A program made the position numbers and the translations under genes. 37,926 nucleotides of DNA from a virus. The stretch covers positions 1-37,926 of the IMG/VR virus record IMGVR_UViG_3300036791_001337, one strand, 5' to 3'. How positions within the stretch are numbered: the first letter of the stretch is position 1; each line of letters begins with the position of its first letter. Under the pieces are notes generated by a model, which ran no database searches, was not told the DNA's origin, and saw only the letters and a program-made list of their open reading frames with translations. Shown piece by piece: positions 1-20,792 of the stretch.

Positions 1-127
1 GGGTCGCCGGCGCCGGCGATCTGCTTTAAGACGATATTGGGGAGCGGCGTGGCTTCGGGCATTTGAGTCGGAAAGATCGCACTGGTGCCGTCGGGGAGCT
101 GGGCGACAATCGCGGTGATGCTACTCG
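1..127. repeat. Left copy of the 127-bp terminal overlap (identical to 37800-37926)
   Basis: Base-by-base comparison of the two window ends shows 127/127 identity. Confidence 0.97.
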
Positions 128-164
128 TCGTCGAGAGCAATGTGTAAAGGCCTTCTCCGAGCAT
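1..164 (-). CDS. 5' part of the DUF3168-like tail terminator / tail completion gene; the full gene is join(37538..37799,1..164), 141 aa
   Basis: In-frame ATG at 164 lies just after the stop of the upstream gene at 166. It gives MLGEGLYTLLSTTSSITAIVAQLPDGTSAIFPTQMPEATPLPNIVLKQ..., the typical DUF3168 N-terminus. The reading frame continues across the circular junction. Confidence 0.7.
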   Translation of the reverse strand, partial: MLGEGLYTLLSTTSSITAIVAQLPDGTSAIFPTQMPEATPLPNIVLKQIAGAGD

Positions 165-165
165 A

Positions 166-405
166 TTAGAGTGCCAGCCGCTGGCCGGCATGTGTTTTGC
201 AGTTATGAATGTTGGGACCGATCTCGACTGCGCAGTTCTCGCACTGCCAGCGGTCGCAGGTGACCAACTTCCAATCACGGCGCATCGGAAAGTCGCATTG
301 GATGCTAGCGTGTGGTGCGCCGCAGGACTCACAGTGAGCCTCGCGCCTATGGCCGCCGCAAAGGATGGCCGTGGTGTTCCCGAATTTGACGACCGAGCAC
401 GCCAT
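166..405 (-). CDS. Small Cys-rich (9 Cys, two CxxC pairs) zinc-ribbon-like protein of unknown function
   Basis: 79-aa ORF packed between the gp10-like gene (stop 408) and the DUF3168 gene (start 164). It contains C25-x2-C28 and C55-x2-C58. Confidence 0.6.
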   Translation of the reverse strand: MACSVVKFGNTTAILCGGHRREAHCESCGAPHASIQCDFPMRRDWKLVTCDRWQCENCAVEIGPNIHNCKTHAGQRLAL

Positions 406-407
406 AC

Positions 408-878
408 CTATTTCACGGCCTCATTAAATCCCACTTTGGCGCCGTCAATGAATTGCTCCAGCGCGTCATCTTTCTTGGCCTCGAAACTCTGCCGGATGAA
501 AGGCTTCGCCGCCATCTTGCGCGTGCCGAATTCGAGAAAGCGCGCCACCATGGCCACAGTCACCGTCGAACCCCTGCCGCCGCGCTTCGGGATGCGGAGC
601 GGGTAGGCGTCTTTCGTCGGACCCACCGCGGCCGTGCCCGACAGTTCGTCGCCTCGAATGCTTACGCGCAGGCCGATGTGCGCGGCGAGATAGCCCTCCG
701 GCGCTCCGTAGAGCGCCTGGGCGATTCGCGGCGCGCGCAGCTCCATCTCGCGTTTCCAGACGTTAGCGGCGGCGCCCAGAGCGCGGCGTAGAATCCGGCG
801 CGCGAGCTTCAAGGGAAGCTCGTCGAGCTTCTGCTGCAGCTCCTTCAGGCCTTCGACTTTCAGGGTGATACCGTCCAT
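408..878 (-). CDS. HK97 gp10-family head-tail / tail completion protein
   Basis: Starting from internal ATG 878 (MDGITLKVEGLKELQQKLDELP...) and ending ...ARFLEFGTRKMAAKPFIRQSF..., which matches the gp10-family signature. The longer 234-aa ORF would overlap the plus-strand gene 963-1157. Confidence 0.75.
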   Translation of the reverse strand: MDGITLKVEGLKELQQKLDELPLKLARRILRRALGAAANVWKREMELRAPRIAQALYGAPEGYLAAHIGLRVSIRGDELSGTAAVGPTKDAYPLRIPKRGGRGSTVTVAMVARFLEFGTRKMAAKPFIRQSFEAKKDDALEQFIDGAKVGFNEAVK

Positions 879-962
879 GCAATCGTCTTTCTTAGCACTC
901 GCTCGCAGGGTCAAAAAGGCCGATAATATAGGTGAGCGGCAACCAGCCGCAGGAGAAACGAA

Positions 963-1157
963 GTGACCAACAACCAACTCTTTTTCGCCCTCGCAGGATT
1001 GATGCTTGCAATCAATGGCCTGACGGCGGGTTTCCTCAAATACTACATCGACGCCAAAATCGACCCGGTCGGCGAGCGCGTCAATGAACTCGTGCAGTAC
1101 ATGATCCTGCACGAAGGCAAAATCGCCACCTTGGAAGAGCGCACCAAGAAGCTCTAG
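963..1157 (+). CDS. Small membrane protein (N-terminal TM helix plus C-terminal coiled coil), opposite-strand moron
   Basis: GTG start preceded by AGGAG with about 7 nt spacing. The segment LFFALAGLMLAINGLTAGFL is hydrophobic. It is the only plus-strand gene inside the minus-strand head-tail block. Confidence 0.55.
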   Translation: MTNNQLFFALAGLMLAINGLTAGFLKYYIDAKIDPVGERVNELVQYMILHEGKIATLEERTKKL

Positions 1158-1172
1158 CTCCGCCGAGCGCTT

Positions 1173-1188
1173 CTCCGCGCAAGCGGAG
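1173..1188 (+). terminator. Hairpin CTCCGC-GCAA-GCGGAG just downstream of the 963-1157 gene
   Basis: Perfect 6-bp stem with a GNRA-type tetraloop 16 nt after the stop codon. There is no U-tract. Confidence 0.3.
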
Positions 1189-1238
1189 CGTCCGGCGTGG
1201 TCGCCGGGGCCGCTACGTAACGCGGCGATCCTCCTACG

Positions 1239-1610
1239 TCACGTTCCTAACTGCGAAGCCACGCGCTCGATGCAGAGCAGCATCAGCATGTGCCGGATTC
1301 CGTCCGGATTCTCCACCGCCTGGATCTGAAAGAACTGATCGTACTCAGCCCCACCGCTCGTCGGCCATTGAATGTTCTGCTGCGGCACGATGCCCGGCAT
1401 CCAGCGCAGCCGGATGCGATGCGTGACTTGCGAAACTTTCGTCTGCGCGCTTAGCAGCTCGCGGCCGGACAGGGTCTCGATCGAGGCGGGCACGTGCGAG
1501 GCGAAGACGGTCGATTGATTGATCTGGTAGCCTCCAAAGCTATCGCGAGCCAGACTCAGCGCCATGATGTTCACGCGGTGGCGCAGCTTGCCGGCTTCAA
1601 GGATGGGCAA
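1239..1610 (-). CDS. Head-tail joining / head closure protein (Phage_H_T_join, SPP1 gp16-like)
   Basis: GKLRHRVNI...ETLSGRELLSAQTKVSQVTHRIRLRW...IQAVENP... matches the family pattern. It sits between the connector and the gp10-like gene. Confidence 0.75.
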   Translation of the reverse strand: MPILEAGKLRHRVNIMALSLARDSFGGYQINQSTVFASHVPASIETLSGRELLSAQTKVSQVTHRIRLRWMPGIVPQQNIQWPTSGGAEYDQFFQIQAVENPDGIRHMLMLLCIERVASQLGT

Positions 1611-1613
1611 CGT

Positions 1614-2498
1614 TTATCCTCGCGTGGGCGCGAGATCGAGCACCCGCAGATTCCAGAGCAGGTCCTGCACATGGCCCGGGATCTCGCGCAGATCCACCGG
1701 TGAGACTGCCTCGCGATGCTCGTACCAGGACCCCACCGTGTGCAGGATTCCCACCTTGGCAAGCATGGGCACCGCGGTGCCGTCGTTTCCATAGCCGGAG
1801 GTGTAGTGGATCTGCACGGCATTCGGCACGTAGAGGACGGAAGGCCAATTCTGGCCGGCGAGCGGAAAAATGCGCGGCGGCTCGCTGTCGCCGTCGTAAA
1901 TGAAATCGCCTGCCGGCGCCGGCCCTTCACAGGTGAGTGTGAGATCACCCCAGGTCGTCTGATCCCCAGGATTCGTCCCCCAACTCAAAGGGAAGGTCGA
2001 ACCCGATAAGCCCGTGCCGGTGCTGACCTCATAGACGAGCTGCAGGTTGCCGTTCGGGTCCTCGAACTCCTCGCCGATTGTGTATTTCCTATTAATCTGC
2101 GCGCCGAAGGGTTCGGGCAGGAGATCGTGCCACTGCGAATCGCCGCTCGAGAGGTAGGAGATCCGGTCGACCTCAACCAGGGGCGAGTAAAAGAGCTTGA
2201 TCATCTGGCTGTAATTCCAGAGCGTGGTCGAGTAGCGCGGCAGCGAGTAATAGGCTGGCGGATAAGCCATCTGGCTCATCATCGTGTCTGTGAAATAGGG
2301 GAACGAATCGAGCGACTGGCGATAGCCCTTATTGACCAGGCTCCGCGCCAGGAAGGCCTCGACGCCTTCGCGCGCGGCCTGCAGGTAGAGCGCGATCAGG
2401 TCATCGTCATCTGTGATGACGACGCGCAAGTGGCTCTTACAGATGTCGAGCGTCACCGGCTCGACGAGCGGCGGTATCTCAACTTGAATGGCAGCCAT
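1614..2498 (-). CDS. gp6-like head-tail connector (DNA-packaging / QLRG-type) protein with an extended middle region
   Basis: The N-terminus VTLDICKSHLRVVITDDDDLIALYLQAAREGVEAFL and the C-terminus ...VQIHYTSGYG...WYEHREAV are typical of gp6-like connectors. At 294 aa it is long for the family. Confidence 0.7.
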   Translation of the reverse strand: MAAIQVEIPPLVEPVTLDICKSHLRVVITDDDDLIALYLQAAREGVEAFLARSLVNKGYRQSLDSFPYFTDTMMSQMAYPPAYYSLPRYSTTLWNYSQMIKLFYSPLVEVDRISYLSSGDSQWHDLLPEPFGAQINRKYTIGEEFEDPNGNLQLVYEVSTGTGLSGSTFPLSWGTNPGDQTTWGDLTLTCEGPAPAGDFIYDGDSEPPRIFPLAGQNWPSVLYVPNAVQIHYTSGYGNDGTAVPMLAKVGILHTVGSWYEHREAVSPVDLREIPGHVQDLLWNLRVLDLAPTRG

Positions 2499-2532
2499 GG
2501 TGGGGGTTTAACCGTAGTGTAAAGATGCTGGA

Positions 2533-3303
2533 CTAGCCTATAGTTGTGAACGAGGGCATATGAACTGCCGGCTCTGCGGCAAAATCGTCGAGGTCGTCGA
2601 GTGGCTCGATCAGCTCGGGCTCTGCGGGAGCTGCTCGCCGGGGTACATCCCGGTCTGCGATTGCTTCGATCGCCTGGTCCCTCTGATACAAGAGCCGGAT
2701 GCTGGCCGCGTCGCACTTATGCAAGGTGAGAAAACCGGGCGGAGCGATTTCGATGTTGCGCGGCGGTCCCGGATAGCCCGGCACATAACGTGCGTCGTGC
2801 ACCGGAATGATGCCCTGAAGTCCTAAAGTCTTTCCCACCGCGCAGTCTTCCGCGAATTCGCCTGTCAGCAGGTGGTCGGCCACGATCGCGATCGCGCGCC
2901 GCGAGAGCCAGTAGCCGGCCCCGCCCTGGGCATAAGCGTAAATCAGGCCCGGTCCAGGGCCGTTACTCCAGCGCCCATCGCAGAAGCCTGAATAATCCGC
3001 AGTCGAGAAGTTGCTCGCCAGGAGCTGACGCGGCCGCACATAGGTGTCGTCGTCGCACTTGAACATCCAGTCGTAATCACGGGCGCGCGCCCACTTCGTG
3101 AGAGCGTGCGTCTTCGCGACCAGGGTGGCGTAAGTGTCCGGACATTCCAGAATCACTACATCCGGCTCCTTCGCAGTCCGAGGGAAGCCGAGAAAGTAGC
3201 GATAGTTCACGGCCGGCGGCAGGTCTCGCAGCCAGGTGTCGCGCTGCGCCTGGCGCAGATGCGCCCGCGCATGGCAGGAAGTGATGGCGATTAGAATCCT
3301 CAA
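2533..3303 (-). CDS. GT31 / Fringe-like glycosyltransferase
   Basis: Contains LRQAQRDTWL, WMFKCDDDTYV (DXD) and GGAGYWLSRRA motifs. The TTG start overlaps the upstream stop (TTGA). Confidence 0.65.
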   Translation of the reverse strand: MRILIAITSCHARAHLRQAQRDTWLRDLPPAVNYRYFLGFPRTAKEPDVVILECPDTYATLVAKTHALTKWARARDYDWMFKCDDDTYVRPRQLLASNFSTADYSGFCDGRWSNGPGPGLIYAYAQGGAGYWLSRRAIAIVADHLLTGEFAEDCAVGKTLGLQGIIPVHDARYVPGYPGPPRNIEIAPPGFLTLHKCDAASIRLLYQRDQAIEAIADRDVPRRAAPAEPELIEPLDDLDDFAAEPAVHMPSFTTIG

Positions 3304-3938
3304 GTTCGGAAGAACTTTTTAAACTCTGCTGGCGGCATCAAATGCGGCCTGTGCGCCGCGATCACCTCGGGACGCCAGATGGCCTCAGCCTCGCCGAGGT
3401 CGTAAAGCGCCAGAGTGTCGCGAGCAAAAAGATAGTCGCCTTCATAGGATCGGCCCCAGCCGCCGAGTTTCCCGAGCATGTTGGGCCAGGCGCCGCAGGC
3501 GGTGTCGAAATCGCCGCAGACCAGGCGCGGCCCGGAAGGCGCGATCTGGCCGTTCAGGAAGCGCACCTTGAAGATCACCGGTCGGCCACAAAACTGCTCA
3601 GCCGCGCCGCGCATGGCCCGGAAGGCGCCCGGTAGCATGACGTTGTCGTCGTCCTGAAAGACGATGTAATCGCCGCGCGCATGCCGGATCCCGAAATTGC
3701 GCTGCGTGTTGCCGAAGCAGTGGTCAAGCGGTCCCTCGAGATAACGGAAGGGCTGACCGAAGCATTCCTGATTGATCGACTTCACGCACTTCGCGGCAGA
3801 CGGCTGCGGACCATCGCCCACCACCAGGACCTCATCGCCCGCGTTGCCGACGATTAGGTCTTGGCGCGCAATCGAGTCGAGCATTCTGGTCAGCGTCGGC
3901 CGGCCCAGCGTCGCGATGATGACGCTCAGGGTAATCAC
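3300..3938 (-). CDS. GT2-family glycosyltransferase
   Basis: LSVIIATLGRPTLTRMLDSIARQ... and YIVFQDDDNV (DXD). I place the start at GTG 3938 (AAGG 6 nt upstream), which overlaps the GT32 stop as GTGA. The 311-aa ORF-track version would overlap GT32 by 300 nt. Confidence 0.7.
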   Translation of the reverse strand: MITLSVIIATLGRPTLTRMLDSIARQDLIVGNAGDEVLVVGDGPQPSAAKCVKSINQECFGQPFRYLEGPLDHCFGNTQRNFGIRHARGDYIVFQDDDNVMLPGAFRAMRGAAEQFCGRPVIFKVRFLNGQIAPSGPRLVCGDFDTACGAWPNMLGKLGGWGRSYEGDYLFARDTLALYDLGEAEAIWRPEVIAAHRPHLMPPAEFKKFFRT

Positions 3939-4642
3939 AAATACCTTCGCTTCAGTTGCTCGTAGAGGGACTCCGGCGGATAGGTCCCGTCGCGGTCCGC
4001 TTTGCCAAGCGCCCACATCGCGCCCCATAATTGCACCGCCGCGGCCTCCGGATGCAGCCTGGGCGCCGCCGGCGCAACCACGTCGCGCCAGCGATGCCAA
4101 TCGATAGGGCAGAAACGAAAGACGGGCTGCAGGTGCCGGCGCAGAGCAAAACGCCCGATCGCGGAGGCGACCAGGTCCGGACCATGCCCCGTATAACTCG
4201 CCTGTTGTTTGCCGGCGCAGAACTCGTGCATCCAAAGCGCGGCGGGAGCTCCGGCCGGCACGCGCGCGACGCCGCTCGTCGGGATCTCGACTCTGCCCTG
4301 GGCCTGGCTGGCGAAAACGTACTCACTCGCAAATTCGAAAGGCTTCAGCGCCATGACGTCGAGGTCGCACCACCACCCGCCGCGATCGAAGAGCAGTTTC
4401 CAGCGGAAGAGATCGCTGAAGCCGGCGTAATAGTCGCGGAACTTGAAGATGCGATCGCAGGGAATGATCGCGGCCGCGTCCTCGAGCACCACATCAGGTG
4501 GTGTGCCGTCCGGCTCGCTGTCATAGCAGTAGAGGTGATACTCGTGCCCCTGGGCTTGAAAAGAGCGGATCGATAGCCGCTCCATCGTGGATAGGCGCGG
4601 CCCGATCCAGAGGCCCTGGATCAAATCTCGGACCAATTTCAC
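3935..4642 (-). CDS. GT32-like glycosyltransferase (Gly_transf_sug DXD type, Och1/A4GALT-like)
   Basis: LWIGPRLSTMERLSIRSFQAQGHEYHLY... and FSDLFRWKLLFDRGGWWCDLDV. The GTG start overlaps the stop of the 74-aa ORF (GTGA). Confidence 0.65.
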   Translation of the reverse strand: MKLVRDLIQGLWIGPRLSTMERLSIRSFQAQGHEYHLYCYDSEPDGTPPDVVLEDAAAIIPCDRIFKFRDYYAGFSDLFRWKLLFDRGGWWCDLDVMALKPFEFASEYVFASQAQGRVEIPTSGVARVPAGAPAALWMHEFCAGKQQASYTGHGPDLVASAIGRFALRRHLQPVFRFCPIDWHRWRDVVAPAAPRLHPEAAAVQLWGAMWALGKADRDGTYPPESLYEQLKRRYL

Positions 4643-4863
4643 CGCTTGCGTTTCGGCGGATGTTGCGCGGCAGTCACGGCGCGCTCGCGCGCCGGTTCGA
4701 GGGCGGTGGTTTCGGCGCCCTGGCGGCCAGGGATGACCGCGCGGCCAAGTTCAGTGTCGAAGAGTTCGGCGGTTCCGAGGCCGAGGCGCGTCCGGGCGGC
4801 GGCGCAGTGCGCGTCAATCATTTGGCCGAAGCCTGGTCCGGCAATGATGCGGGCTACAAGCAT
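4639..4863 (-). CDS. 74-aa ORFan, first gene of the glycosyltransferase operon
   Basis: ATG preceded by GGAGGAGG with 7 nt spacing. Its stop overlaps the GT32 start. Confidence 0.55.
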   Translation of the reverse strand: MLVARIIAGPGFGQMIDAHCAAARTRLGLGTAELFDTELGRAVIPGRQGAETTALEPARERAVTAAQHPPKRKR

Positions 4864-4974
4864 AAGCTAACCTCCTCCGGGGGGACAGGAGTCGAGGACC
4901 GGGAAGCCGAAGGGGGGTTCGTTCCCCGGCCCTCTTTCTCCCGCTCTAAGGAGCTAACGAACAGCACAAGTCTA

Positions 4975-5709
4975 CTACGCATTGAACGAATCTTTCGCCA
5001 CCGTGACCGGGCCGAGACGTTCCCAGTCGTCCGGGTTCTTGAAATGATCGGATATGGCTCGAAGCCAGCCGCCATTTTCAAGAGTGAGTTCGAGGCCGAG
5101 TAATCGCGCCGCGCGCTCCGGCGCGCACTTCAACCACCATTCTGCATAGGTGTAGCGGTTCCCTTTGGACCAGTTGCAGCGTTTGCAGCAAACGACCAGG
5201 TTCTGTTTGAAGTAGCCCTGAGCATTGTCTTTCCGGTCGAGGTTATAGCGGGACCGGATGCCGACGCCGCGAGCGTTGTATTCGGCCCACGTGATGGGCG
5301 CATGACAGTAATGGCACTGATGGATGCACGTGAACTTCAGGAATTCTTCGTACGTCAGAGAAAAGACATGGCCTGCCTGCTGACACCTCAATCGGGTTCC
5401 GTTATAGAGAGCTTCATAGGGACGCAGGCGAAGATCCGGACGTTCCAGGCACTTGCGGCAGGTTCGGACTTTGAACTGGCCGCGAGTGAGTTCATTAGCA
5501 CCAAACCACCGTGTTGCACCGCACGTGTGCCGGGCCAGCCAGATTTTGCCGTGGTGATGGAAGCGCTTCGCCTCTATGGTCCAACCGCTGAAGGTCTTGC
5601 CTATCAGCGAACCGAGCCGGCTGGGTGATTGCCGAGAACTCCGGAGCCGGCCGGGGCGCGAATTTCGGTACCTCGGCCGGCCGGGAAAGTCAAATAAGTC
5701 TAGTTGCAT
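4975..5709 (-). CDS. HNH-family (homing-type) endonuclease
   Basis: CHYCHAPI...YNLDRKDNAQGYFKQNLVVCCKRCNWSKG is the LDRxDN...N...CxxCNxxK HNH motif. Confidence 0.7.
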   Translation of the reverse strand: MQLDLFDFPGRPRYRNSRPGRLRSSRQSPSRLGSLIGKTFSGWTIEAKRFHHHGKIWLARHTCGATRWFGANELTRGQFKVRTCRKCLERPDLRLRPYEALYNGTRLRCQQAGHVFSLTYEEFLKFTCIHQCHYCHAPITWAEYNARGVGIRSRYNLDRKDNAQGYFKQNLVVCCKRCNWSKGNRYTYAEWWLKCAPERAARLLGLELTLENGGWLRAISDHFKNPDDWERLGPVTVAKDSFNA

Positions 5710-5728
5710 TGTCTAATTATGGGAAAGC

Positions 5729-7078
5729 CTACGCCGCGGCTTGCACCAGGTATTTGATGGGATGGGTGCCAGCGTCCAGGAGGTTTCCATCGTATCTCGC
5801 GAATCCGATGAAGGCCACCTGTCCGAAGTCAGCGAATCTCTCTACGAGCCTCAGCACCGCGAGTTCCTTCACGCGCCGGATGAGGTATTTATCCAGCGGT
5901 CCGAACGCGACCGAGTGGGCGTTGAGCGCGATCGCGGCCATGTCATTGTTGATGGAGTACTCGTAGCCGAGGATGGTGTCAGGCGCGTTTGAGGAAACCC
6001 CCGGCACCCACAAGGGACGCCCGTATTTGTCGAGCAGTTCCTTGATTTTCCGCAGCGTCGAATCGTGGCACATGTACTTCGCCCCGCGCCGATAGAGCGG
6101 GTCGATGGAGTGCTCGAGCTCGACCAGGTCGATGTAACCGATGGAAGTGCCGCCGGTTTCAGTGCCGCCCGTATTGCCCGACGAGCCGACGGCGGTCGGG
6201 CCGGCGGCTGCGGCCGTCATAATGCCCGTCGGTTCCGTCGTGCCCACACCCACCGTAAATTTAGTGTTCAGGATGCGGCCCAATCGCACGGCAAATTTCT
6301 GCTTCAGATAGGACTCCATGTCAAAGGCCGAATCCTGAAGCAGTTCCAGGGAGACCTTCACCATTTTGGTGGAAAATTTGAAGGCCCCGAAAACGACGTG
6401 ACCGATGGAGACATCGGCGTTCGTGACCTGAATACCTTCGCCCACCAGCTCGCCGGTGTTGGTCGTATCGTTGTCAGTCGGGTAGGGCAGCGGCTGCCCG
6501 GTGGCGGTGTCCAGAATGGTGGCGACGCCGAGCATGTTGCCGTAGTACTTCAGGGCCTGCTCGATGTCATAGACGAACCCCTGCGGGACGAAGAAGCCGC
6601 CGAGGTTGCCGGTACCGACGCCCATGTCCCTGAACTCCTGGAGGATGGCGCGGTTTTCCGGCTTCATGTCGTTTAGACCGTTGCGGAGGTAGTCGCGAAA
6701 CGCGGTGCGGTGTTTGCGGTCGCGTTCGATGAAAGCCGCCATCTGTGTTCGTTCGGATGCGGCGAGCGAATCCTCGCCCTTTTCAACATATCGCCGCACC
6801 ATTTGCAGATGGCGGTCAGGATCGGTGTCAGCGGCGCGACTGATTGCGGCGCCGGGTTGGGATTCGGGCGGCTTCTCCGTCCGGGTAACTTCGGATTCGG
6901 CGGCGGCGGCGCGTTCGATGCGGTCAATATCCGTCTTCAGTTCGTCGGCCTCGGTCATCATGGCGTCGAACTTCACGCGGGTTTCGCCGCTGAGCTTCTG
7001 GCCGTCCTGTGGAATGAGGGCTTGCGCGTCGGCGACCAGCTTGGCTCGCTTCTCGCGCAGTTCCCGTGCTTTAGACAT
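5729..7078 (-). CDS. Major capsid protein, HK97 family, with an N-terminal coiled-coil delta/scaffold domain
   Basis: The N-terminus MSKARELREKRAKLVADAQAL... is predicted coiled coil. It contains the GNLGGFFVPQGF motif, is 449 aa long and lies directly downstream of the prohead protease. Confidence 0.9.
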   Translation of the reverse strand: MSKARELREKRAKLVADAQALIPQDGQKLSGETRVKFDAMMTEADELKTDIDRIERAAAAESEVTRTEKPPESQPGAAISRAADTDPDRHLQMVRRYVEKGEDSLAASERTQMAAFIERDRKHRTAFRDYLRNGLNDMKPENRAILQEFRDMGVGTGNLGGFFVPQGFVYDIEQALKYYGNMLGVATILDTATGQPLPYPTDNDTTNTGELVGEGIQVTNADVSIGHVVFGAFKFSTKMVKVSLELLQDSAFDMESYLKQKFAVRLGRILNTKFTVGVGTTEPTGIMTAAAAGPTAVGSSGNTGGTETGGTSIGYIDLVELEHSIDPLYRRGAKYMCHDSTLRKIKELLDKYGRPLWVPGVSSNAPDTILGYEYSINNDMAAIALNAHSVAFGPLDKYLIRRVKELAVLRLVERFADFGQVAFIGFARYDGNLLDAGTHPIKYLVQAAA

Positions 7079-7254
7079 CGGCGTTTCTCCTGTTCAGTTT
7101 TGGATTCGAAGCCGCGCCGGGGCCTCGCCGTCGCGCATCGTTTCCCCCACCGGCCGGGGCGAGGGGTCAAGCAAAACCTTTGGGAATCTCGGAAGTGAAG
7201 AAGTCAAGTACCTCTTCACTTTGTGCATGCCAATGCTTAGGCGCTTTTGCATTC

Positions 7255-8052
7255 TCAGGCGACGGCAGCCGCCACGCGGGCGCGCATCCTCAGCACCTCG
7301 AGGGCGCGCGAGTTCTCTTCCGTCTCGCCGTCGTCTTGCATCGGGCAGTCATGGTCCGCGCATTCGCCGTCGTCGCAGGCGACGTTCGAGCACCCCATGC
7401 AGTTGTCGTCCTCACAAGCGGTGCAGTCGCACTCGCAGCCGTTCGCGTTCTCTTCCTCATCGTCCTGGCGCTGCTGGCCGCGGCCGAGCACGGTCGCGAA
7501 GAGGCGGACGGAGCGCGGGCGCCCGTCGGGCCAGAGGGCGCGCTGATCGACGGAGGTCTGAGGATAGGCGGGAAAGGTGACGGGCGAAACGTCGAAGACA
7601 TCGACGGCGTGCAGCTCGCGGGTGTAGAGCGTGACGTTGCCGTCTTCGTCCTTCTCTTCGCCCCATTTTTCCTTGCGGACAATAAACCCGAACGAGCACT
7701 GGCTGATATCACCGCGGCCGATCGAGGTCAGCAGGTCCCGCGCGGCCTGAGTATCGGGCGTGTCGCAATCGAAGTGAAGGCCAGTATTGTCTTCGGCCAG
7801 GGAAAGGGTCCGCGCGGTCGTGCGCCCCAGGACTACGTCCGGGTTGTGATTCATCAGGCAGCGCACGTCAGGTTTCGTCGCGAGGCAAGCGGTGAAAGCC
7901 CCCGGCATCACCATCTCCCGGAAGGAAAACCAGGAGGAGCCGAGATCCTCAGATAGCTCATTGAAGACCGCGGCGTAACCTTCGATGCCGGGTTTCTCGC
8001 CCGCCTTGGCGCGGATATGAGCTTTCGCGATGATGCGGAATTCTCGTATCAT
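7255..8052 (-). CDS. Prohead protease, HK97 family (S78/U35), with a Cys-rich acidic C-terminal extension
   Basis: IEGYAAVFNELSEDLG...FREMVMPGAFTACL...VRCLMNHN matches the family. The C-terminus carries 9 Cys within residues 206-236. Confidence 0.88.
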   Translation of the reverse strand: MIREFRIIAKAHIRAKAGEKPGIEGYAAVFNELSEDLGSSWFSFREMVMPGAFTACLATKPDVRCLMNHNPDVVLGRTTARTLSLAEDNTGLHFDCDTPDTQAARDLLTSIGRGDISQCSFGFIVRKEKWGEEKDEDGNVTLYTRELHAVDVFDVSPVTFPAYPQTSVDQRALWPDGRPRSVRLFATVLGRGQQRQDDEEENANGCECDCTACEDDNCMGCSNVACDDGECADHDCPMQDDGETEENSRALEVLRMRARVAAAVA

Positions 8053-8095
8053 TGGGCTGCCTCCTGGAGTCTTCGAATCTCAAATCAGGTTCGCA

Positions 8096-8542
8096 TTACT
8101 CTCGATTCCGCCGGTGCGACCGCTCCGGTGTCGTCTGACCAGGCTCGGGCGCGAGCGTCACGTCAAGCGGCAGACCGGTTCCGAAGAGATCGCCAGCCCA
8201 TTCGGGGACGCCGTCGGCGGGCGCGACGACCGTAACGGTGTCCTCGATTTCAAGGGCGGCGATTGCGGTTCCGGGTGTGAACAGTTGAACCTTAACGGTT
8301 GTTTCGCCCACGGCGACCGGGCTTACTACACCGCTGGCCACCGAGGCAGTGCCGCTCGCGGGGTCGCGAGGATTCTGGATGCGGACCGGGTTCGGGTCCA
8401 GCGAAACCACGCCGATACCGGCGGGATCGGCGCCCACCTGGAGGCTGGCGCCGCCGGGAAGCGGCGCGCCGAGTCCGGCGGCATTCTTGGCGATGACATA
8501 AAACGGATAGTTGGGACCGTTTTGGCGTAGGGTCAAAGGCAT
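8096..8542 (-). CDS. Ig-like (Big_2-like) domain protein between portal and protease
   Basis: ATG preceded by AAGGAG. ...ASVASGVVSPVAVGETTVKVQLFTP...TVTVV resembles bacterial Ig-like domains. Confidence 0.5.
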   Translation of the reverse strand: MPLTLRQNGPNYPFYVIAKNAAGLGAPLPGGASLQVGADPAGIGVVSLDPNPVRIQNPRDPASGTASVASGVVSPVAVGETTVKVQLFTPGTAIAALEIEDTVTVVAPADGVPEWAGDLFGTGLPLDVTLAPEPGQTTPERSHRRNRE

Positions 8543-8613
8543 GACGGGTTCTCCTTATTTTTCAGTTTTGAGTAACAAGCTCTTTGCTAGGTCGATTAGC
8601 CTGATGTCGCGAG

Positions 8614-10389
8614 TCATTCCAGTTTGGAACGCCTCACAGGTAGCCGGAAGCGCACCTCGAGGCGGATCGCAGCCGCGGCGCGCGCCAGCTCACGGTCGGA
8701 TAGAGCGTCAAGTTCGCCATTAGCAGTGCGCCATTCCTGGACACGGGTTGCCATTTGATTGAGATAGTCGGCGGCGAAGCGCGAGGACTCGAAACCGGGC
8801 GCACCGTCGAAAGCGATTTCCGGACCGCCGCAGGCCTCCGCAATCGAGCACAGAATAGGCCCGAAAGTGAGGCGAATCGTCTCCGAATCGGGGTTGCGGC
8901 GTTTCAAAATGCGCCCAATGGCGTCGCGAAAGATGCGCGAATAGAGGCGAATTACGCGCGCATTCGTCTTGTCGCCGCCGGCGGATGGTTCATCGGCGGC
9001 CGGTTCGTCAGGTGGTTCGTCGGCTGGCGGCACAACCTCCTGAGGCTTCTCCTGACCGCCCATTGCGGTCATGTTGACGGGCATCCAGAGCGCGTCGGCG
9101 GCGGGGTCATCGACCGGGTTCCAGTCTTCCATCTCCCTGATGTCGTTGGTTGAGCCCACGCCCCACTGTTTGACGGTCGCGTAAAAGTTGCGGCGCGATT
9201 CCGCATCGGGCATGGCGAGCTGGCGGGTCTCGAATTTCGGGAAATACTTTCCGGCGGTCCGACCCATCTTCGGGAATACGCGGCGTTTCAGTTCCTGCGT
9301 CCAGGATTCGAGCCATGGTCCCAGGGTGAAGGTGACGAACTCAAGGCCGATCTGCTCGGTGTTGGCCCTGTTTTGCTTCCCCGTATCGCCGATCATGTGC
9401 GGCGGCACCGAGAAGATCGAGCAAATCTCATCCTTCTGGAATTGGCGCGTTTGCAGGAATTGCGCGGCCTCGTTTTCGGACGAGGCGGCTTCGAATTTCA
9501 TCCCCTCTTCCAACACCGCGGTCTTGTGCGCGTTCTCGCCGCCTTGCGCCTCCTGCCAGGAACGCTTCAGGTTCTCGCGCGCTTGCGTCGACAGTTTGCC
9601 GGGATGAGTGACGACGCCGCCGGGCCGGGCGCCGTTGCCAAAATATTTGCTCCCGTACTTTTCAGTGGCGAGAGCGAGGCCGACGGCTTGCCGGGTTAGC
9701 CAGATGACGGATTGCCCGAGGCGGCCGTCGAGGGCCAGGCCTGGGACGTGGATCATATCCTCGGCGGCAATCAGCCGCGGCGAGGAGAGCGGCTGCGCGT
9801 CCGTCTCAAGGTCGGTGAGTTCATCCACCCCTTCGGTCGTCTCATAAATCAGCGTGCCGGCCGGCACGACTTCACCGAATTGCCCGACGCACGTCGGTTG
9901 CATCACGCGGCGCGGTTTCGTCCGCGCGGGATTCCGTGGCCAGAGCGCCAGCACGCTATTGCCCTTGTCGCGCTGAATCTCAGCGTACAGATTGCCCCAC
10001 AGCAGCGCATGCGACTGCAACGTCTTGCGAAACGTCAGCGCGGTCATTTCCGGGTTGGGTTCATAGCGCAGGAGGTCGTAGACGTTGTGCTCGTAAGCGA
10101 TGCGCTTGCCAGGCCGGCGGTCGGCGGTGTCAATCCACTCGAAGACGTGGAGCGGCAGGAAGCCGATGGCGGACGAAATCAGTTGCACGCAGGCGAAGAC
10201 GGTCGAGACTTGCAACGCGGTCATTTCCGAGACGCGAATGCCGGAGTCCGTCCGGCCGCCGTTGAAAATATCGAGCAGCCATTCGGCGGGATACGACAGC
10301 GGCGTCGATGGGTTTTCGAGCGACGTCCGGTATTCGGGCAGCACCCAGCTACGGACGGCGTTGCGGAGCGCGGAACCGATGATACTCAT
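8614..10389 (-). CDS. Portal protein, HK97 family
   Basis: YFGNGARPGGVVTHPGKLSTQARENLKRSWQEAQGGENAHKTAVLEEGMKFE...ICSIFSVPPHMIG matches the Phage_portal pattern. 591 aa. Confidence 0.9.
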   Translation of the reverse strand: MSIIGSALRNAVRSWVLPEYRTSLENPSTPLSYPAEWLLDIFNGGRTDSGIRVSEMTALQVSTVFACVQLISSAIGFLPLHVFEWIDTADRRPGKRIAYEHNVYDLLRYEPNPEMTALTFRKTLQSHALLWGNLYAEIQRDKGNSVLALWPRNPARTKPRRVMQPTCVGQFGEVVPAGTLIYETTEGVDELTDLETDAQPLSSPRLIAAEDMIHVPGLALDGRLGQSVIWLTRQAVGLALATEKYGSKYFGNGARPGGVVTHPGKLSTQARENLKRSWQEAQGGENAHKTAVLEEGMKFEAASSENEAAQFLQTRQFQKDEICSIFSVPPHMIGDTGKQNRANTEQIGLEFVTFTLGPWLESWTQELKRRVFPKMGRTAGKYFPKFETRQLAMPDAESRRNFYATVKQWGVGSTNDIREMEDWNPVDDPAADALWMPVNMTAMGGQEKPQEVVPPADEPPDEPAADEPSAGGDKTNARVIRLYSRIFRDAIGRILKRRNPDSETIRLTFGPILCSIAEACGGPEIAFDGAPGFESSRFAADYLNQMATRVQEWRTANGELDALSDRELARAAAAIRLEVRFRLPVRRSKLE

Positions 10390-10395
10390 GAGGTT

Positions 10396-11685
10396 TTAGG
10401 CCGGGCCTCCGGTTCTTAGTACAAAGACATCGACGCGCTGCTTGGGCCAGTCGCCGCCGAGGGTGCATTCCCAGTCGCTGGTGAATAGGAAAAACTCTCC
10501 GTTCGGGCTCACGTTGCCTCGCGGGGTCGAGTAGAAGTTGCCTGTGCCGTCGCGCGAGGTCACGGCGGTCGAGTAATGGTGGGCGAGCCTCCACCAGCGG
10601 CCACTGCCGTCCGTGGCCAGGGCCAGGATTTCGTTGTCTCCGGCGGCGTCGGACGTCAGCGGAGTTCCGCGCGTGATCGGGTTCTCAAGGGCGTTCTCGG
10701 TGCTTATGAACAGAGGGCTGCGGTCTGCTCCGTCGGCTAACGCCGAGATGTGCGAGTCACTCCACCAGCCAGGGACTGGCTCCGGGATCGGGACCATCAG
10801 GTTTTGCCAAGCAGGGATGTTCCAGAGCGGAGCCTGAATCCATTGGAACGGGACGCTTTTGCTGACGTTGCCGTACCACGTCGAAAACCCCAACGCTTGA
10901 TGCGCGAGAACAGGTGTTTGCTCGGAGTGCGTGAGAAGTTGAAACACGAGCGACCCCGGCTGCCAGAAGGCCATTTTGTTCCCATCCATCACCGGTGCGA
11001 TTCGGACGGCAGTGCCGCTCTTCGCCATGCGAAGGTTATGGATCAGGAATGGTTCCCAGGGCTCGATCCGGCCGGACGCCCAGCCGCCATAAACGCCGGT
11101 TTGAGTATCGAGCCAGCAGAGGCCGCGCACTTCGTCCCAAACACACACGAGCGAATTGCGGTCTTGGGCGGGGCCGAGGCAGACCGCCACTCGATTGTCC
11201 CACCAGTCCGCGCTGAGCGACATAAGATACCAGCGCGGCTCATCAGGAATGCCGAGCTCCGGGTAATCCATCAAATCGACCACAGTTTCGATTTGTTCCG
11301 TCGTGCGGTTGTATTGATTGATGGAGAGTCCATCAATACACCAGATCAGGTCACGATTCTGGCCACTGAACACCGGATTTGAAACACCGCTGGGCAGCCG
11401 CCGCAGCAACTGCGCCTGAAAATCCGTGAATTGAAACAGCCAATTCCAACCGCTCAGATCACCGATCACGAACGCCGAGGTATCACAGGCCCACGGCTGA
11501 GTTTCACTCGAAGAGGGTGTGGTGAAGCTGGCACCGGGCTTTCCCGCGTCCGTGTTCTCATCCGTCACCCGAATCATGGGATTGCCACAGAAGGGGTCAA
11601 TCACCGTAGAACCTGCGGGGCCGAGCTCGGGAGGCGTGCAGGGGTAGGAAATAATGCTTTGGTCGGTAATCGCGTTGAAATTCAT
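10396..11685 (-). CDS. Trp-rich, probably beta-propeller protein (TolB/PD40-like C-terminal repeat) of unknown function
   Basis: 429-aa ORF tightly packed upstream of the portal. ...YSTPRGNVSPNGEFFLFTSDW...RVDVFVL resembles PD40-type blades. I recognise no catalytic motif. Confidence 0.45.
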   Translation of the reverse strand: MNFNAITDQSIISYPCTPPELGPAGSTVIDPFCGNPMIRVTDENTDAGKPGASFTTPSSSETQPWACDTSAFVIGDLSGWNWLFQFTDFQAQLLRRLPSGVSNPVFSGQNRDLIWCIDGLSINQYNRTTEQIETVVDLMDYPELGIPDEPRWYLMSLSADWWDNRVAVCLGPAQDRNSLVCVWDEVRGLCWLDTQTGVYGGWASGRIEPWEPFLIHNLRMAKSGTAVRIAPVMDGNKMAFWQPGSLVFQLLTHSEQTPVLAHQALGFSTWYGNVSKSVPFQWIQAPLWNIPAWQNLMVPIPEPVPGWWSDSHISALADGADRSPLFISTENALENPITRGTPLTSDAAGDNEILALATDGSGRWWRLAHHYSTAVTSRDGTGNFYSTPRGNVSPNGEFFLFTSDWECTLGGDWPKQRVDVFVLRTGGPA

Positions 11686-11692
11686 GGGCGCC

Positions 11693-11965
11693 TCAGTTCA
11701 TCTGCAGGTTGAATTTGATATTTACCCGCGTCAACGTGTAACCAAGGTCGGCGACGGCCGCGATGAGTGCATCCTTGGCGCTGTTCAGGTTGACGGTCTG
11801 CGAGAGCGTGTTGTCGTAAGGAAACGAACTGGCGAAATCCAACTGATTCGTTCCGTCACTGATGACGCCCTGATAGGAAATTTGAATCTGCTGGGGATTC
11901 GGCGGCGTGCCGCCGCTGAGATCGAAGCGGGTCACGGTTAGAAACGCGAAGGCTGGATTAGCCAT
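11693..11965 (-). CDS. 90-aa hypothetical protein
   Basis: ATG 11965 lies 1 nt after the upstream stop (TAAAATG). Coding-like composition and no overlap conflict. Confidence 0.55.
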   Translation of the reverse strand: MANPAFAFLTVTRFDLSGGTPPNPQQIQISYQGVISDGTNQLDFASSFPYDNTLSQTVNLNSAKDALIAAVADLGYTLTRVNIKFNLQMN

Positions 11966-11966
11966 T

Positions 11967-13013
11967 TTAGGCAAACTCCCAAACACGAATCAGACCAGCC
12001 GCCCCAGCCCCTCCTGCGAAGGGGCCGCCGGTCAACGCGAGGGCGCCATTGCCGCCGCCTCCATACTTTTTGCCTGGGCTTCCATTGTTCGAAGATGTCA
12101 GTCCCATCAGCGCGCCGCCGCCGATTGGAGCGCTTCCGCCACTGCCGGAAATCCCAATGGTGCCCGAAATCCTCCAGAGAGGGCCACCGTCACAACCGTC
12201 GAATTTGATATCACCCACGCCGCTGGCAGACGCTCCGCCCGCGCCCCCTGGGCCAATCACAGATGAGGTTCCCGCCGAGACGACGTTCGGTCCGCCGGCG
12301 CCAGCCTTGGCCGTACACACCGACGTAGGACTGTCGAAAGTGGTATCCGTTCCGTTGTTTCCGGGCAAGGCTGCCCCTGGTACGGCACCTCCGGCGCCGA
12401 CCTGTACGGTATAGGTTGTTTTAATCGAGCCTGTCAGCCATGCGGCGGAGTATGCTCCACCGGCACCGCCCGAGCCACAAGAACAATTCGAGGACGCATT
12501 GGCTGCGCCCCCACCCGACCCGCCGCCGCCGATACATTCGACGTAAAGAGCGCGGGCTCCTGGAGTCGGCGAATAGCTTGTGCCGGTGACGAGGTCGACG
12601 ATTTGAATCAGCCGATAGAGTGCAGCGAAAACGCCAGCGCCAAGCTGGGTTTCGATAGCGTTTAGCTCCGCCGCAAGCTGATTGTGACTGAGTGCCGTGA
12701 TGTTATTGAGCACGACCGCGGCGGCGCTGTGGCTGGCCGCCGTGGTGCCTTCCTTGGCCCGCACGCAGCTATTCAGGGTGTCGGCGGACCGCGACCCGAC
12801 GAAGATGATCTCGTCGTCGATCGACACCTCGAAACTGTCGGCGGGAAGCTGCGCTCCGGTTCCGGCGGTGAGAGTGATAGTCGTGACGGCGGCGGTGATG
12901 CCGGCCAAAAGCGTGGGCGGGCTTCCGGCCAGCGAAGGGGTAGTGTTCGCGAGCAACAGCAGGTCGGCAGGACCGGCAATCGCACCCGGGAATTTGGCGG
13001 TCGGTAGTGGCAT
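11967..13013 (-). CDS. Tail-fibre-like protein with a C-terminal glycine-rich domain
   Basis: N-terminal SFEVSIDDEIIFVGSRSADTLNSCVRAKEGTTAASH motif is common in phage fibre proteins. The C-terminal half is Gly-rich (GGGGSGGG, GSGGAGGA, GGGGNG). The start overlaps the TerL stop (TGATG). Confidence 0.6.
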   Translation of the reverse strand: MPLPTAKFPGAIAGPADLLLLANTTPSLAGSPPTLLAGITAAVTTITLTAGTGAQLPADSFEVSIDDEIIFVGSRSADTLNSCVRAKEGTTAASHSAAAVVLNNITALSHNQLAAELNAIETQLGAGVFAALYRLIQIVDLVTGTSYSPTPGARALYVECIGGGGSGGGAANASSNCSCGSGGAGGAYSAAWLTGSIKTTYTVQVGAGGAVPGAALPGNNGTDTTFDSPTSVCTAKAGAGGPNVVSAGTSSVIGPGGAGGASASGVGDIKFDGCDGGPLWRISGTIGISGSGGSAPIGGGALMGLTSSNNGSPGKKYGGGGNGALALTGGPFAGGAGAAGLIRVWEFA

Positions 13014-14635
13014 CAGAGCAGCGTGATCTTAGGCGCGGAAGGCTGTTGGTTGACCATCGCCCGCACCAGGGCATTCACCGCGGCGGCGATCCCGTCGATG
13101 CGCGCCGTCTCGCGCGACCGCTCCGGCTTGGCGAACATGAGGTTATCGTTTGACTCTTTGACGGAGAGCGACGCGGCGTTCCAGCGCAATACAGGGTGCC
13201 CGCCGTGGCGCAGTTTGCCATTGGCCACGAGCTCGAGGAATTTCTTGCTGGGGCTTGAAAGCGTGGCATAGCCCTGGCGCACCTCCACGCAGGCGTGGCC
13301 CTCCTCGACAAGCGGCACGGAAAGCTGCTGCGAGTTCCAGGGATCGAGACAGATCTCCTGGAGATCGAACATTTCGGCGCCCCACTCGAGACGGGCTTTG
13401 ACGTCGCGGTAATCGATCACATTGCCGGGGCTCAGCTCGAGGAACCCCTGCTCGGCCCAGGTGCTGTAGGGCATGCCGTCCTTGAGCTCGCGCGCGCGAA
13501 TCCCCTCTTCCGGCATCCAGAAAAACGGCAGCACGTCAAAGACGTCAGTTTCCTCATCGGGGAAGAGAAAGGCCACGGCCGTCATATCGGTGGTCATGGA
13601 GAGGTCGACGCCGGCCCAGCAGCGGCGCTCGATGAAGCGACCGAGCAGATCGTGCGGCAGCGGCCGGACTTTGTCCTCCGGATGCTTCGGGACCAGGCCC
13701 CGGGCTTTCCAATCGCCGGCGCACCGCGCCCACTGCTCGAGATTGATGACGCGGTTTTCCTTCTGGTCCCATAGATTCAGGTAGTAGCGCTTGAAACTGC
13801 GCTGCGCTTCGGGATCGGAGAGCGAGGCCTGGTACTTAGCGCGCAGCTTCTCGATATCGAGAAAACCGCCGTTTTCCTTTAGGCTCGGATTCGCCTTGAT
13901 CCAGGTGGCTTCCGAGGTCCAATCGTTACCCTTTTCGGCTCCATAAATGCGCCCGTAGAAGGTGGGATCGTCAATCACGCCCTCGCGGATCCGCTGCGTT
14001 TTCTCGTGCAGGCGCCAGGCGAGCGGCGATTCGTTCACCACGCCCGCGGTGGTGATGGCGATGGCGAGCGTCTGCCGGCGCGTGATCCCGCCGAGTGAGA
14101 GCACATCCCAGTTCTCGAGCTGCTTCCGGGTCCTCCAGCGATGCACCTCGTCGGCCACAGTGATGGCGGGATTGACGCCGTCGGAGAGATCTCCGTCGGC
14201 GGCGATCGCTGCATAGAAGCTGTCGGGATCCTTGCGGTTGATGATGCGGTTGGTCGACCGTAGCAGGCGGAAACGCTTGGCCAAGAGAGGGCTTTGCTCC
14301 ACCATTTTGCAGGCGGCACGGTAGACGTTCATCGCCTGGCGGCCGGCGGCGGCGGCGCCGTAGACCTGGAACCCTGGGTTTTGAGCCATAAAGAGCGAGA
14401 GCAGCACCAGGCCCGCGGCGAACTCGGTTTTTCCGGTCTTTTTAGGCACTTCTAAATAAGCGAGGGTGATGCGGCGCCGGCCTTGCTCGTCGAGTTGGCC
14501 GAAGATCTCAGAGAGCGCTTCCTCCTGCCAGGGCGCGAGCTGGAAGGGCTTGTCGTACCACTCGTCGGCGGTGTGCTTGAGAATGATCTCAAAGAAGTTG
14601 CAAGCGAGATCGGCTTGAGCTTGCGCAAATGCCAC
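13013..14635 (-). CDS. terL: Terminase large subunit (Terminase_1 type)
   Basis: FQLAPWQEEALSEIFG...AYLEVPKKTGKTEFAAGLVLLSLF (Walker A-like). 540 aa, downstream of TerS. Confidence 0.9.
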   Translation of the reverse strand: MAFAQAQADLACNFFEIILKHTADEWYDKPFQLAPWQEEALSEIFGQLDEQGRRRITLAYLEVPKKTGKTEFAAGLVLLSLFMAQNPGFQVYGAAAAGRQAMNVYRAACKMVEQSPLLAKRFRLLRSTNRIINRKDPDSFYAAIAADGDLSDGVNPAITVADEVHRWRTRKQLENWDVLSLGGITRRQTLAIAITTAGVVNESPLAWRLHEKTQRIREGVIDDPTFYGRIYGAEKGNDWTSEATWIKANPSLKENGGFLDIEKLRAKYQASLSDPEAQRSFKRYYLNLWDQKENRVINLEQWARCAGDWKARGLVPKHPEDKVRPLPHDLLGRFIERRCWAGVDLSMTTDMTAVAFLFPDEETDVFDVLPFFWMPEEGIRARELKDGMPYSTWAEQGFLELSPGNVIDYRDVKARLEWGAEMFDLQEICLDPWNSQQLSVPLVEEGHACVEVRQGYATLSSPSKKFLELVANGKLRHGGHPVLRWNAASLSVKESNDNLMFAKPERSRETARIDGIAAAVNALVRAMVNQQPSAPKITLL

Positions 14636-15687: not shown

Positions 15688-15689
15688 GT

Positions 15690-15905: not shown

Positions 15906-15907
15906 AA

Positions 15908-20765: not shown

Positions 20766-20792
20766 GTGCAATCTGATGCAACACGGTGCAAC
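20766..20792 (+). promoter_or_regulatory. Three (G/A)TGCAA(T/C) direct repeats at exact 10-bp spacing in the RHH/integrase divergent region
   Basis: GTGCAAT at 20766, ATGCAAC at 20776 and GTGCAAC at 20786. The same hexamer, on the opposite strand, recurs at attP. Confidence 0.45.

Follow-up and report, generated by a model that had tools for sequence, protein, structure and literature searches.

What do glycosyltransferase genes modify when they lie inside the head operon of a phage? The question is raised by positions 2533 to 4863 of the IMG/VR virus record IMGVR_UViG_3300036791_001337, a stretch of 37,926 nucleotides (nt) that is referred to here, at its full length, as the window. Four minus-strand open reading frames (ORFs), predicted to encode a 74-amino-acid (aa) protein and three glycosyltransferases (GTs) of the GT32-like, GT2, and GT31 families, follow one another in this region, downstream of the major capsid gene and directly upstream of the head-tail adaptor gene (Table 1). 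An original prediction, made by a model from the sequence, had read them as a coupled operon for the glycosylation of virion proteins. Late, cytoplasmic glycosylation of a virion protein was also the best reading after the analyses presented here, with a probability of about 50%; it was the reading best supported by comparative context, but nothing in the capsid supports it.

Structure of the gene chain and families of its products

The four ORFs were joined by 4-nt start/stop overlaps (GTGA at 4639 to 4642, GTGA at 3935 to 3938, and TTGA at 3300 to 3303), and a Shine-Dalgarno sequence (GGAGGAGG) was found 7 nt upstream of the ATG at 4863. Both features had been predicted, as had a set of motifs in the three glycosyltransferases, every one of which was found in the translations. 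The GT32 and GT31 genes had no Shine-Dalgarno sequence of their own, which is consistent with coupling by termination-reinitiation. The three non-ATG starts were backed by the N termini of homologs: relatives of GT31 always began with M(R/K)ILIAI, the alignment of GT32 relatives began at residue 8, and relatives of GT2 were 203 to 212 aa long. Automated gene calls were too short for two of the genes (P0001, 207 aa; P0121, 216 aa). The four products contained no hydrophobic or transmembrane segment (maximum 19-residue Kyte-Doolittle value, 1.18), indicating soluble proteins.

On the minus strand from the protease gene to the adaptor gene, no promoter-like site was found in a consensus scan (the consensus was of the E. 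coli type and may miss a cassette-specific promoter), and terminator-like sites numbered 3, versus 5.6 expected by chance. Position, overlap coupling, and the lack of a detected promoter or terminator of its own would fit late coexpression of the cassette. The GC content at third codon positions (GC3) of the glycosyltransferase genes was 0.72 to 0.78 and matched that of the phage, with values of 0.72 to 0.80 for neighboring genes and 0.67 for an HNH-like ORF next to the chain.

The assignment of the GT2 product was unambiguous. It matched PF00535 (E = 7e-15; 55.8 bits, with a cutoff of 23.3) and, in the PDB, the PglI structure 9jma (E = 5e-4), with the DDD motifs aligned; matches to EpsD and PglI in NCBIfam were partial. 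The predicted product is an inverting GT2-family glycosyltransferase.

The GT31 product as a single sequence was barely above the Pfam cutoffs (PF01762 [Galactosyl_T], 25.2 versus 23 bits; PF02434 [Fringe], 21.9 versus 21 bits). A profile of 51 homologs matched human B3GALT6 (E = 1.6e-23), C1GalT1 (E = 9e-19), and Manic Fringe (E = 3.5e-6), as well as B3GALT5, B3GNT2, CHSY3, and B3GLCT. Among these homologs, the motifs RxxxRxTW, KCDDDTY, GGAGYW, and ED were invariant or nearly so, and residues D84, D86, E152, and D153 were invariant in all 51 sequences. The AlphaFold model had a predicted local distance difference test (pLDDT) score of 89.8, falling to near 60 in the tail, and its 37 best Foldseek matches in the PDB were all GT31 enzymes (template modeling [TM] score, 0.55 to 0.68). 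The C-terminal ~40 aa were acidic, unconserved, and predicted to be disordered. The fold and the RxxxRxTW, DDD, GGAGY, and ED motifs are common to the phage enzyme and eukaryotic GT31 enzymes (B3GALT6, C1GalT1/T-synthase, B3GNT2, and Fringe; TM score up to 0.68), whereas the phage enzyme lacks both the N-terminal membrane anchor and the stem and is reduced to a minimal catalytic domain of ~215 aa with the disordered acidic tail. By family, the product is a beta-1,3-transferase/Fringe-like enzyme, and it would act in the cytoplasm. The earlier description of the family as mostly eukaryotic was overstated, since over 100 relatives of this clade occur in bacterial genomes and 79 loci were counted on viral contigs.

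The match of the GT32-like product to PF04488 was marginal (23.6 bits, with a cutoff of 23), and homologs with 42 to 56% identity contained both PF04488 and PF04572. Residues D93 and D95 of its DXD motif were invariant in 30 sequences, and its profile matched the Och1 structure 9n3s (E = 0.002) over the DXD segment only. The AlphaFold model (pLDDT, 94.2) had a retaining GT-A fold, and its nearest Foldseek matches were the retaining GT-A enzymes YeGT, SetA, PaToxG, and glycogenin (E = 2e-9 to 1e-4), along with LtpM and GlyE. With TM scores of only ~0.5 for these matches, it is the sequence that supports assignment at the family level, and on this basis the product is classed as an Och1/Gb3-synthase-like retaining GT-A glycosyltransferase. 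The proposal of three different DXD families was thus upheld by Pfam, by profiles, by intact DXD motifs, and by the models of GT32 and GT31. In PHROGs, no match was found for GT31, GT32, or the 74-aa ORF, and none was found in NCBIfam for GT31 or GT32.

The first gene of the chain had been taken for an ORFan and a leader of the glycosyltransferases, which proved incorrect. Its homologs are 60 to 77 aa long, and those recovered by an exhaustive HMMER search (69 to 77 aa) share the pattern MLVRI..G.G.V.D...A.A....GTA....ETTAL.P..R....Q.PPKRK, with P0242, P0247, and P0248 being 54 to 56% identical. ORFs of the same family stand directly upstream of the adaptor gene in the related loci L001, L002, L007, L008, L009, and L248, and about 22 of the 80 IMG/VR loci with related capsids have the small gene without a glycosyltransferase. 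In GT31-carrying relatives, the small gene is found downstream of GT31 and not upstream of the glycosyltransferases. Its retention upstream of the adaptor gene in loci without glycosyltransferases indicates an ordinary conserved gene of the head module that happens to be coupled to the cassette here. The 111-nt spacer upstream of it (4864 to 4974, minus strand) contains a 12-bp GC-rich hairpin with no U-tract after it (minimum free energy, −51 kcal/mol for 120 nt folded; z = −2.4), which might function in the processing or the stability of the RNA.

Distribution of the cassette among related phages

The closest relative, L248, has a capsid protein that is 84% identical, and its DNA is colinear with the window across TerS-TerL, portal, protease-capsid, and adaptor. 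The gap between the capsid and adaptor genes is 0.6 kb in L248, where it holds a homolog of the small gene and a 68-aa ORF, versus 3.2 kb in the window, and colinearity resumes exactly at position 2498. No glycosyltransferase gene was found within the 14.9 kb of the L248 contig that was examined. In L166 (capsid 80% identical), the order is capsid, small gene, and adaptor. Any of the three glycosyltransferases was nearby in only 2 of the 80 loci with related capsids. Judged from these comparisons, the three-gene cassette is an accessory insertion between the conserved small gene and the adaptor gene.

An insertion that is missing from the closest relatives and that adjoins another mobile insertion (the HNH-like ORF) might be recent neutral or decaying cargo without a current function. 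This is very improbable, given that the three ORFs are intact and conserve the family-invariant catalytic residues, that their GC3 is typical of coding sequence, that the exact 4-nt overlaps are maintained, and that orthologs with 49 to 63% identity are intact in other phages.

Homologs of GT31 numbered 124 in the protein collection, and 79 loci were found in IMG/VR by an alignment-based scan; a scan of IMG/VR with peptide patterns from the single GT31 sequence found nothing. The closest GT31 homologs (46 to 63% identity) were all located in related head operons. In L001, L008, and L009, GT31 occurs alone, after the capsid gene. In L002 and L007, genes for GT32 (49 to 51% identical) and GT2 (60%) lie between the protease and capsid genes, and GT31 follows the capsid gene. 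Three phages therefore have the same three enzymes, and the genes are arranged in two different ways that both stay within the head operon. Placement in structural operons recurs in more distant loci: in L245 and L246, a GT31-like gene is flanked by the head-tail joining genes on one side and the tail tube gene on the other, and in L247 a Mu-gpT-like capsid gene is followed by two cement-protein genes, a 229-aa ORF, a GT31-like gene, and then an FkbM-type methyltransferase gene (9707 to 10339, plus strand). The tail module of L002 contains a gene similar to Methyltransf_24 and rhamnosyl-O-methyltransferases (15780 to 16382, plus strand). These sugar-type O-methyltransferases of L002 and L247 parallel gp35 of mycobacteriophage Corndog.

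The contexts of distant GT31 loci were read by Pfam scans; iterative hidden Markov model searches from the head proteins of the window did not reach their structural genes. Larger contigs with two or three GT31-like paralogs included L010, L014, L018, L020, L024 to L026, L032, L034, L041, L044, L050, and L056. Some of the paralogous genes are apparently fused (ORFs of 470 to 730 aa), and they often adjoin genes for GDP-mannose dehydratase, epimerase, or RmlD and for other glycosyltransferases. These contigs look like viral glycan-synthesis islands. Cellular GT31-like relatives were at most 41% identical and came from Planctomycetota, Verrucomicrobiota, and Acidobacteriota.

Two further observations concern the loci in which GT31 stands alone. 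In L009, the capsid gene and the GT31-like gene are separated by a gene (5125 to 6201, plus strand) for a protein with collagen triple-helix repeats, and, by analogy with collagen glycosylation in giant viruses, this protein is conceivable as a glycosylation substrate. A TET-associated glycosyltransferase (PF20691) is encoded upstream of the terminase genes of L001 (2513 to 3229, plus strand), which suggests DNA hypermodification in that phage, separate from its GT31 gene.

No isolated phage with the cassette or a close relative of its three genes was found in a collection of 50,697 phage genomes. Within that collection, megablast with positions 1 to 12000 of the window and tblastn with GT31 gave no match, and tblastn with GT2 and GT32 gave only weak matches to huge metagenomic phages and to Listeria and Tenacibaculum phages. 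A literature search found nothing relevant on GT31 in phages or on glycosyltransferases in the structural modules of prophages.

Virion protein or host glycan as the possible acceptor

Under the favored reading, the cassette would be transcribed late with the structural genes and translated by termination-reinitiation at the three overlaps. The three soluble enzymes would use nucleotide sugars of the host in the cytoplasm; the phage encodes no genes for sugar-nucleotide synthesis. Before or during assembly, they would add sugars step by step to a virion protein (a capsid, decoration, fiber, or tail-tube protein), giving a short hetero-oligosaccharide. The order of action is deduced from the relatives: GT31 occurs alone in some of them and so is the likeliest first or core step, and GT32 and GT2 would extend its product. 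The outcome would be a glycan-coated particle, as for the mycobacteriophages Corndog and Che8. The choice of a virion acceptor is based on the embedding of the cassette in the head operon and its coupling there, the repeated independent placement of such genes in structural operons, the distance from the integrase gene, the precedent of Corndog, and the lack of membrane partners. The nearest solved folds of the GT32 model belong to protein-glycosylating retaining GT-A enzymes, which adds weak support at TM scores of ~0.5.

Corndog (cluster O), the closest known system, carries an O-methyltransferase gene (gp35) and three glycosyltransferase genes (gp36 to gp38) between its portal and protease genes, and these enzymes were not found in its virions (PMC4351075). 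Virion glycosylation has been reported for Che8, Corndog, and Myrna (Freeman et al. 2023, as cited in PMC12363180 and PMC11256854). In the Corndog record, the 34/35, 36/37, and 37/38 junctions were GTGA overlaps, so that the chain includes the preceding head gene. Corndog and the window thus each have a multigene, GTGA-chained glycan cassette with three small soluble glycosyltransferases of different families inside a codirectional head operon. Corndog gp35 is TylF/Methyltransf_24-like, a type matched by the methyltransferase of L002. The glycosyltransferase families differ, being GT2-like (gp37), GT25-like (gp38), and one unassigned in Corndog versus GT31, GT32, and GT2 in the window, as does the site (portal to protease versus capsid to adaptor). 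Corndog has an actinobacterial host, whereas named capsid relatives of the window phage tentatively point to metagenome-assembled genomes (MAGs) of Acidobacteriota; Corndog has no integrase and no reported stable lysogens, whereas the window phage is temperate; and glycosylation has been reported from experiments for Corndog, whereas for the window it is a prediction. The resemblance is one of analogy and not of family membership, given the lack of homology to Corndog gp38 or Che8 gp110, the glycosyltransferases that virion glycosylation has been shown to require; tblastn of the three glycosyltransferases against the 50,697 phage genomes gave no match in a mycobacteriophage. The arrangement had been described as not a standard module, which does not hold in view of how similar the Corndog arrangement is.

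Glycosyltransferases of Che8 (cluster F1) decorate its capsid and tail-tube subunits and form a glycan shield, according to the passages in which this is cited (PMC11256854, PMC12363180, and PMC12619734). The glycosyltransferase genes of cluster F1 lie near the right end of the genome, as stated for the F1 phage Maravista, and not, as here, in the head operon. Glycans of Che8 are reported at the C termini of the capsid and tail-tube proteins; the window shows no C-terminal feature linked to glycosyltransferases.

The structure 2p72 of A64R from the chlorovirus PBCV-1 was among the distant fold matches of the GT31 model (rank 41; E = 1.6e-5), which shows the general GT-A fold only. PBCV-1 encodes soluble GT-A enzymes, such as A64R, that glycosylate its major capsid protein independently of host machinery. 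It differs in being a giant virus of eukaryotic algae, with an unrelated capsid architecture and other glycosyltransferase families.

Glycosyltransferases of temperate phages may instead modify the host surface. Seroconversion modules include GtrABC and O-acetyltransferase; Gtr modules comprise the flippase GtrA, the membrane-anchored GtrB, and the serotype-specific GtrC and lie by int/attP. Like these, the window is a temperate phage with accessory glycosyltransferases that are sporadic among relatives, but the cassette has no membrane proteins, is not adjacent to the integrase gene (~16 kb distant, in agreement with the original statement that it lies away from the attP region), and stands in a late structural operon without a detected promoter or terminator of its own. 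No hydrophobic segment was found in the four products, and virion glycosylation is favored by this lack of a membrane component, because seroconversion of the Gtr type needs membrane proteins. A cytoplasmic form of seroconversion, distinct from Gtr, was therefore considered: from the cytoplasmic side of the membrane, the soluble enzymes would add one to three sugars to undecaprenyl-linked O-antigen, core, or exopolysaccharide (EPS)/capsule intermediates of the host and thereby alter the phage receptor, with superinfection exclusion or the release of progeny not trapped on debris as the benefit. This alternative is the main rival, but it is less likely than virion glycosylation. It fits a temperate, moron-like setting, and GT32 homologs with ~45% identity occur in cellular clusters typical of lipopolysaccharide (LPS)/lipooligosaccharide (LOS) synthesis. 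The GT2 product is partly similar to enzymes for EPS and Pgl lipid-linked glycans, solved GT31 enzymes act on sugar acceptors (which fits relatives with GT31 as the only glycosyltransferase of the head module), and a discoidin-domain protein suggests recognition of a glycan receptor. However, a cassette embedded in the late head operon and coupled to it is badly placed to be expressed in a lysogen, and no flippase, polymerase, acetyltransferase, or other membrane partner is encoded. The genes of relatives are scattered as separate insertions, every one within a structural operon and none close to lysogeny genes (L001, L002, L007, and L245 to L247), and the GC3 of the cassette equals that of the phage.

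A different late target, such as DNA bases, a host cytoplasmic protein modified for takeover or antidefense, or a nonvirion phage protein such as a scaffold or chaperone, appears improbable. DNA is a known target of phage glycosyltransferases (Pyle et al., as cited elsewhere), L001 has its TET-associated glycosyltransferase elsewhere in the genome, and the solved folds nearest to the GT32 model are those of toxins whose glycosylation targets are host proteins. That fold similarity, at a TM score of only ~0.5, reflects the general retaining GT-A fold, and a set of three different families would be unusual if DNA were the target. In the window ORFs scanned (several small ORFs of the early region were not scanned), no family match pointed to a hydroxymethylase, a TET/JBP enzyme, or a DNA-base kinase, and the head-operon position would be left unexplained. 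DNA glycosylation was dropped as a candidate, as the scanned ORFs included no supporting genes.

The virion reading was weighed against the structural proteins themselves. A Ser/Thr/Gly-rich loop of the capsid protein had been proposed as a possible substrate. This loop (aa 296 to 312; positions 6143 to 6193) is a feature of the capsid family and does not track the presence of glycosyltransferases: it is nearly identical in L166, L168 to L170, and L177, all without a nearby glycosyltransferase, and the mean Ser/Thr fraction is 0.22 in loci with nearby glycosyltransferases versus 0.24 in those without. As a marker of the substrate, the loop was ruled out by this equal Ser/Thr content and its likeness in L248. 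The loop may nonetheless serve as an acceptor, but its retention in a relative without glycosyltransferases means that it is no evidence of one, and the capsid protein is a candidate acceptor by position only.

Several further points weigh against glycosylation of the virion. The acceptor is the most inferential element of the proposal. The L248 loop is the same except for one Thr-to-Ser change, and the L248 capsid C terminus is identical, though that phage has no glycosyltransferase in the 14.9 kb examined. Compared with L248, no window-specific Ser/Thr-rich insertion was found in the tail tube, adaptor, protease, or orf148 proteins, and neither the capsid nor the tail tube nor the adaptor protein showed an acceptor-like adaptation that tracks the cassette. 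The cassette is dispensable, being missing from 78 of the 80 capsid-related loci. Characterized GT31 enzymes among the PDB matches all extend sugars and none starts on protein, yet GT31 is alone in the head modules of L001, L008, and L009. The GT31-like gene of L250 lies among small genes of unknown function, and more distant viral copies, often two or three paralogs together, belong to islands that also encode GDP-mannose dehydratase, epimerases, and further glycosyltransferases. The ~45% identical cellular GT32 homologs sit with GT25, GT4, and GT1 genes in their LPS/LOS-like clusters. The Corndog glycosyltransferases are not homologous in sequence to those of the window (BLASTP against gp35 to gp38, E > 0.4), and a cassette-specific promoter may have escaped the E. 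coli-type scan.

It is tentatively proposed, with reservations, that the anchorless minimal GT31 clade, so far found only on viral and metagenomic contigs, consists of protein O-glycosyltransferases that start glycans on virion proteins and were repeatedly recruited to structural operons by several unrelated lineages of siphophages that infect Gram-negative soil bacteria, with GT32, GT2, and methyltransferases extending the glycans. In the literature found, experimental support for phage-encoded virion glycosylation comes from only a few mycobacteriophages, in which it shields particles from antibodies. The cassette of the window has the layout of the Corndog cassette but consists of enzymes from unrelated families, and its phage is temperate, uncultured, and not an actinobacteriophage; GT31-like genes also recur in structural operons of other lineages. 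Taken together, these observations suggest that phage particles may have acquired glycan coats more than once in evolution and that such coats may be common in soil viromes. If GT31 is indeed the starter, virion glycosylation would not be a peculiarity of mycobacteriophages, and glycan-coated particles would be widespread in the environment. Confirmation of repeated glycan coating would yield a compact soluble bacterial-type GT31 for glycoengineering and would bear on phage-host recognition and particle stability, on the annotation of phage "auxiliary" glycosyltransferases (usually assumed to be directed at LPS or DNA), and on the engineering of therapeutic phages with glycan shields. If the host envelope were the target, the cassette would show that receptor-modifying genes can be wired into late structural operons.

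Genomic setting of the cassette

Positions 1 to 127 and 37800 to 37926 of the window were identical, indicating a complete circularly permuted (or terminally redundant) genome of a temperate siphophage of ~37.8 kb. The structural operon spans the contig ends. In minus-strand order it comprises TerS, TerL, two ORFs, portal, orf148, protease, capsid, the HNH-like ORF, the small gene, GT32, GT2, GT31, adaptor, head closure, and a gp10-like gene, followed past the contig junction by tail tube, tape measure, and GTA-like distal tail genes (DUF2460, Gp84/BR0599, and Rcc01698-like). The neighbors of the cassette were identified with Pfam and PHROG, which confirmed its predicted location between the capsid gene, with its HNH ORF, and the head-tail connector.

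Table 1. Coordinates of genes and motifs in the window
Feature	Position	Strand	Details
TerS	14642-15226	-	First in minus-strand order
TerL	13013-14635	-	After TerS
Gly-rich fiber-like protein	11967-13013	-	PF21722, PHROG tail fiber; between TerL and portal
429-aa protein	10396-11685	-	No family match; between TerL and portal
orf148	8096-8542	-	148 aa; between portal and protease; 51% identical in L248; no Pfam/PHROG match
S78 prohead protease	7255-8052	-	C-terminal ~70 aa Cys/Asp/Glu-rich (…CECDCTAC…CDDGEC…), conserved in L248
HK97-type major capsid protein	5729-7078	-	PF05065, E = 3e-54
HNH/endonuclease VII-like ORF	4975-5709	-	PHROG 1035, 3322, and 3118; between capsid and 74-aa gene
Small ORF	4639-4863	-	74 aa; ATG start; first gene of overlap chain
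GT32-like	3935-4642	-	235 aa; GTG start
GT32 DXD (DLD)	4358-4366		D93-L-D95; D93 and D95 invariant in 30 sequences
GT2	3300-3938	-	212 aa; GTG start
GT2 DDD	3645-3653		aa 96-98; aligned with DDD of Campylobacter PglI
GT31	2533-3303	-	256 aa; TTG start
GT31 DDD	3046-3054		aa 84-86; within KCDDDTY
GT31 GGAGYW	2908-2925	-	Family motif
GT31 ED motif	2833-2850	-	Family motif
Head-tail adaptor (gp6-like)	1614-2498	-	PF05135, PHROG 40; start 34 nt past GT31 stop codon
Tyrosine integrase	20786-21973	+	~16 kb from cassette
F5/8 type C (discoidin, carbohydrate-binding) and He_PIG Ig protein	25018-26076	-	Downstream of tail genes

Named capsid relatives (~60% identity) came mostly from Acidobacteriota MAGs, and assignment of the host to Acidobacteriota is tentative. 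Assignment by GT31 failed, as its best matches among GTDB genomes were at most 41% identical and looked cellular and not like prophages. The product of the discoidin-domain gene is likely a glycan-binding receptor-binding protein.

TerL directly adjoins portal in L248, which has neither of the two ORFs found between them in the window. These ORFs (10396 to 13013) represent a second accessory insertion within the head/packaging block, and a head fiber may be among their products. The HNH-like ORF at 4975 to 5709 is missing from L248 and L166 and is probably a homing-endonuclease-type insertion separate from the glycosyltransferase chain; another HNH ORF, at 15316 to 15807, adjoins TerS. Val, Ala, and Pro are abundant in the orf148 product, for which a decoration or Ig-like protein is a possible identity, and the Cys/Asp/Glu-rich tail of the protease could be a metal-binding or scaffold-like extension.

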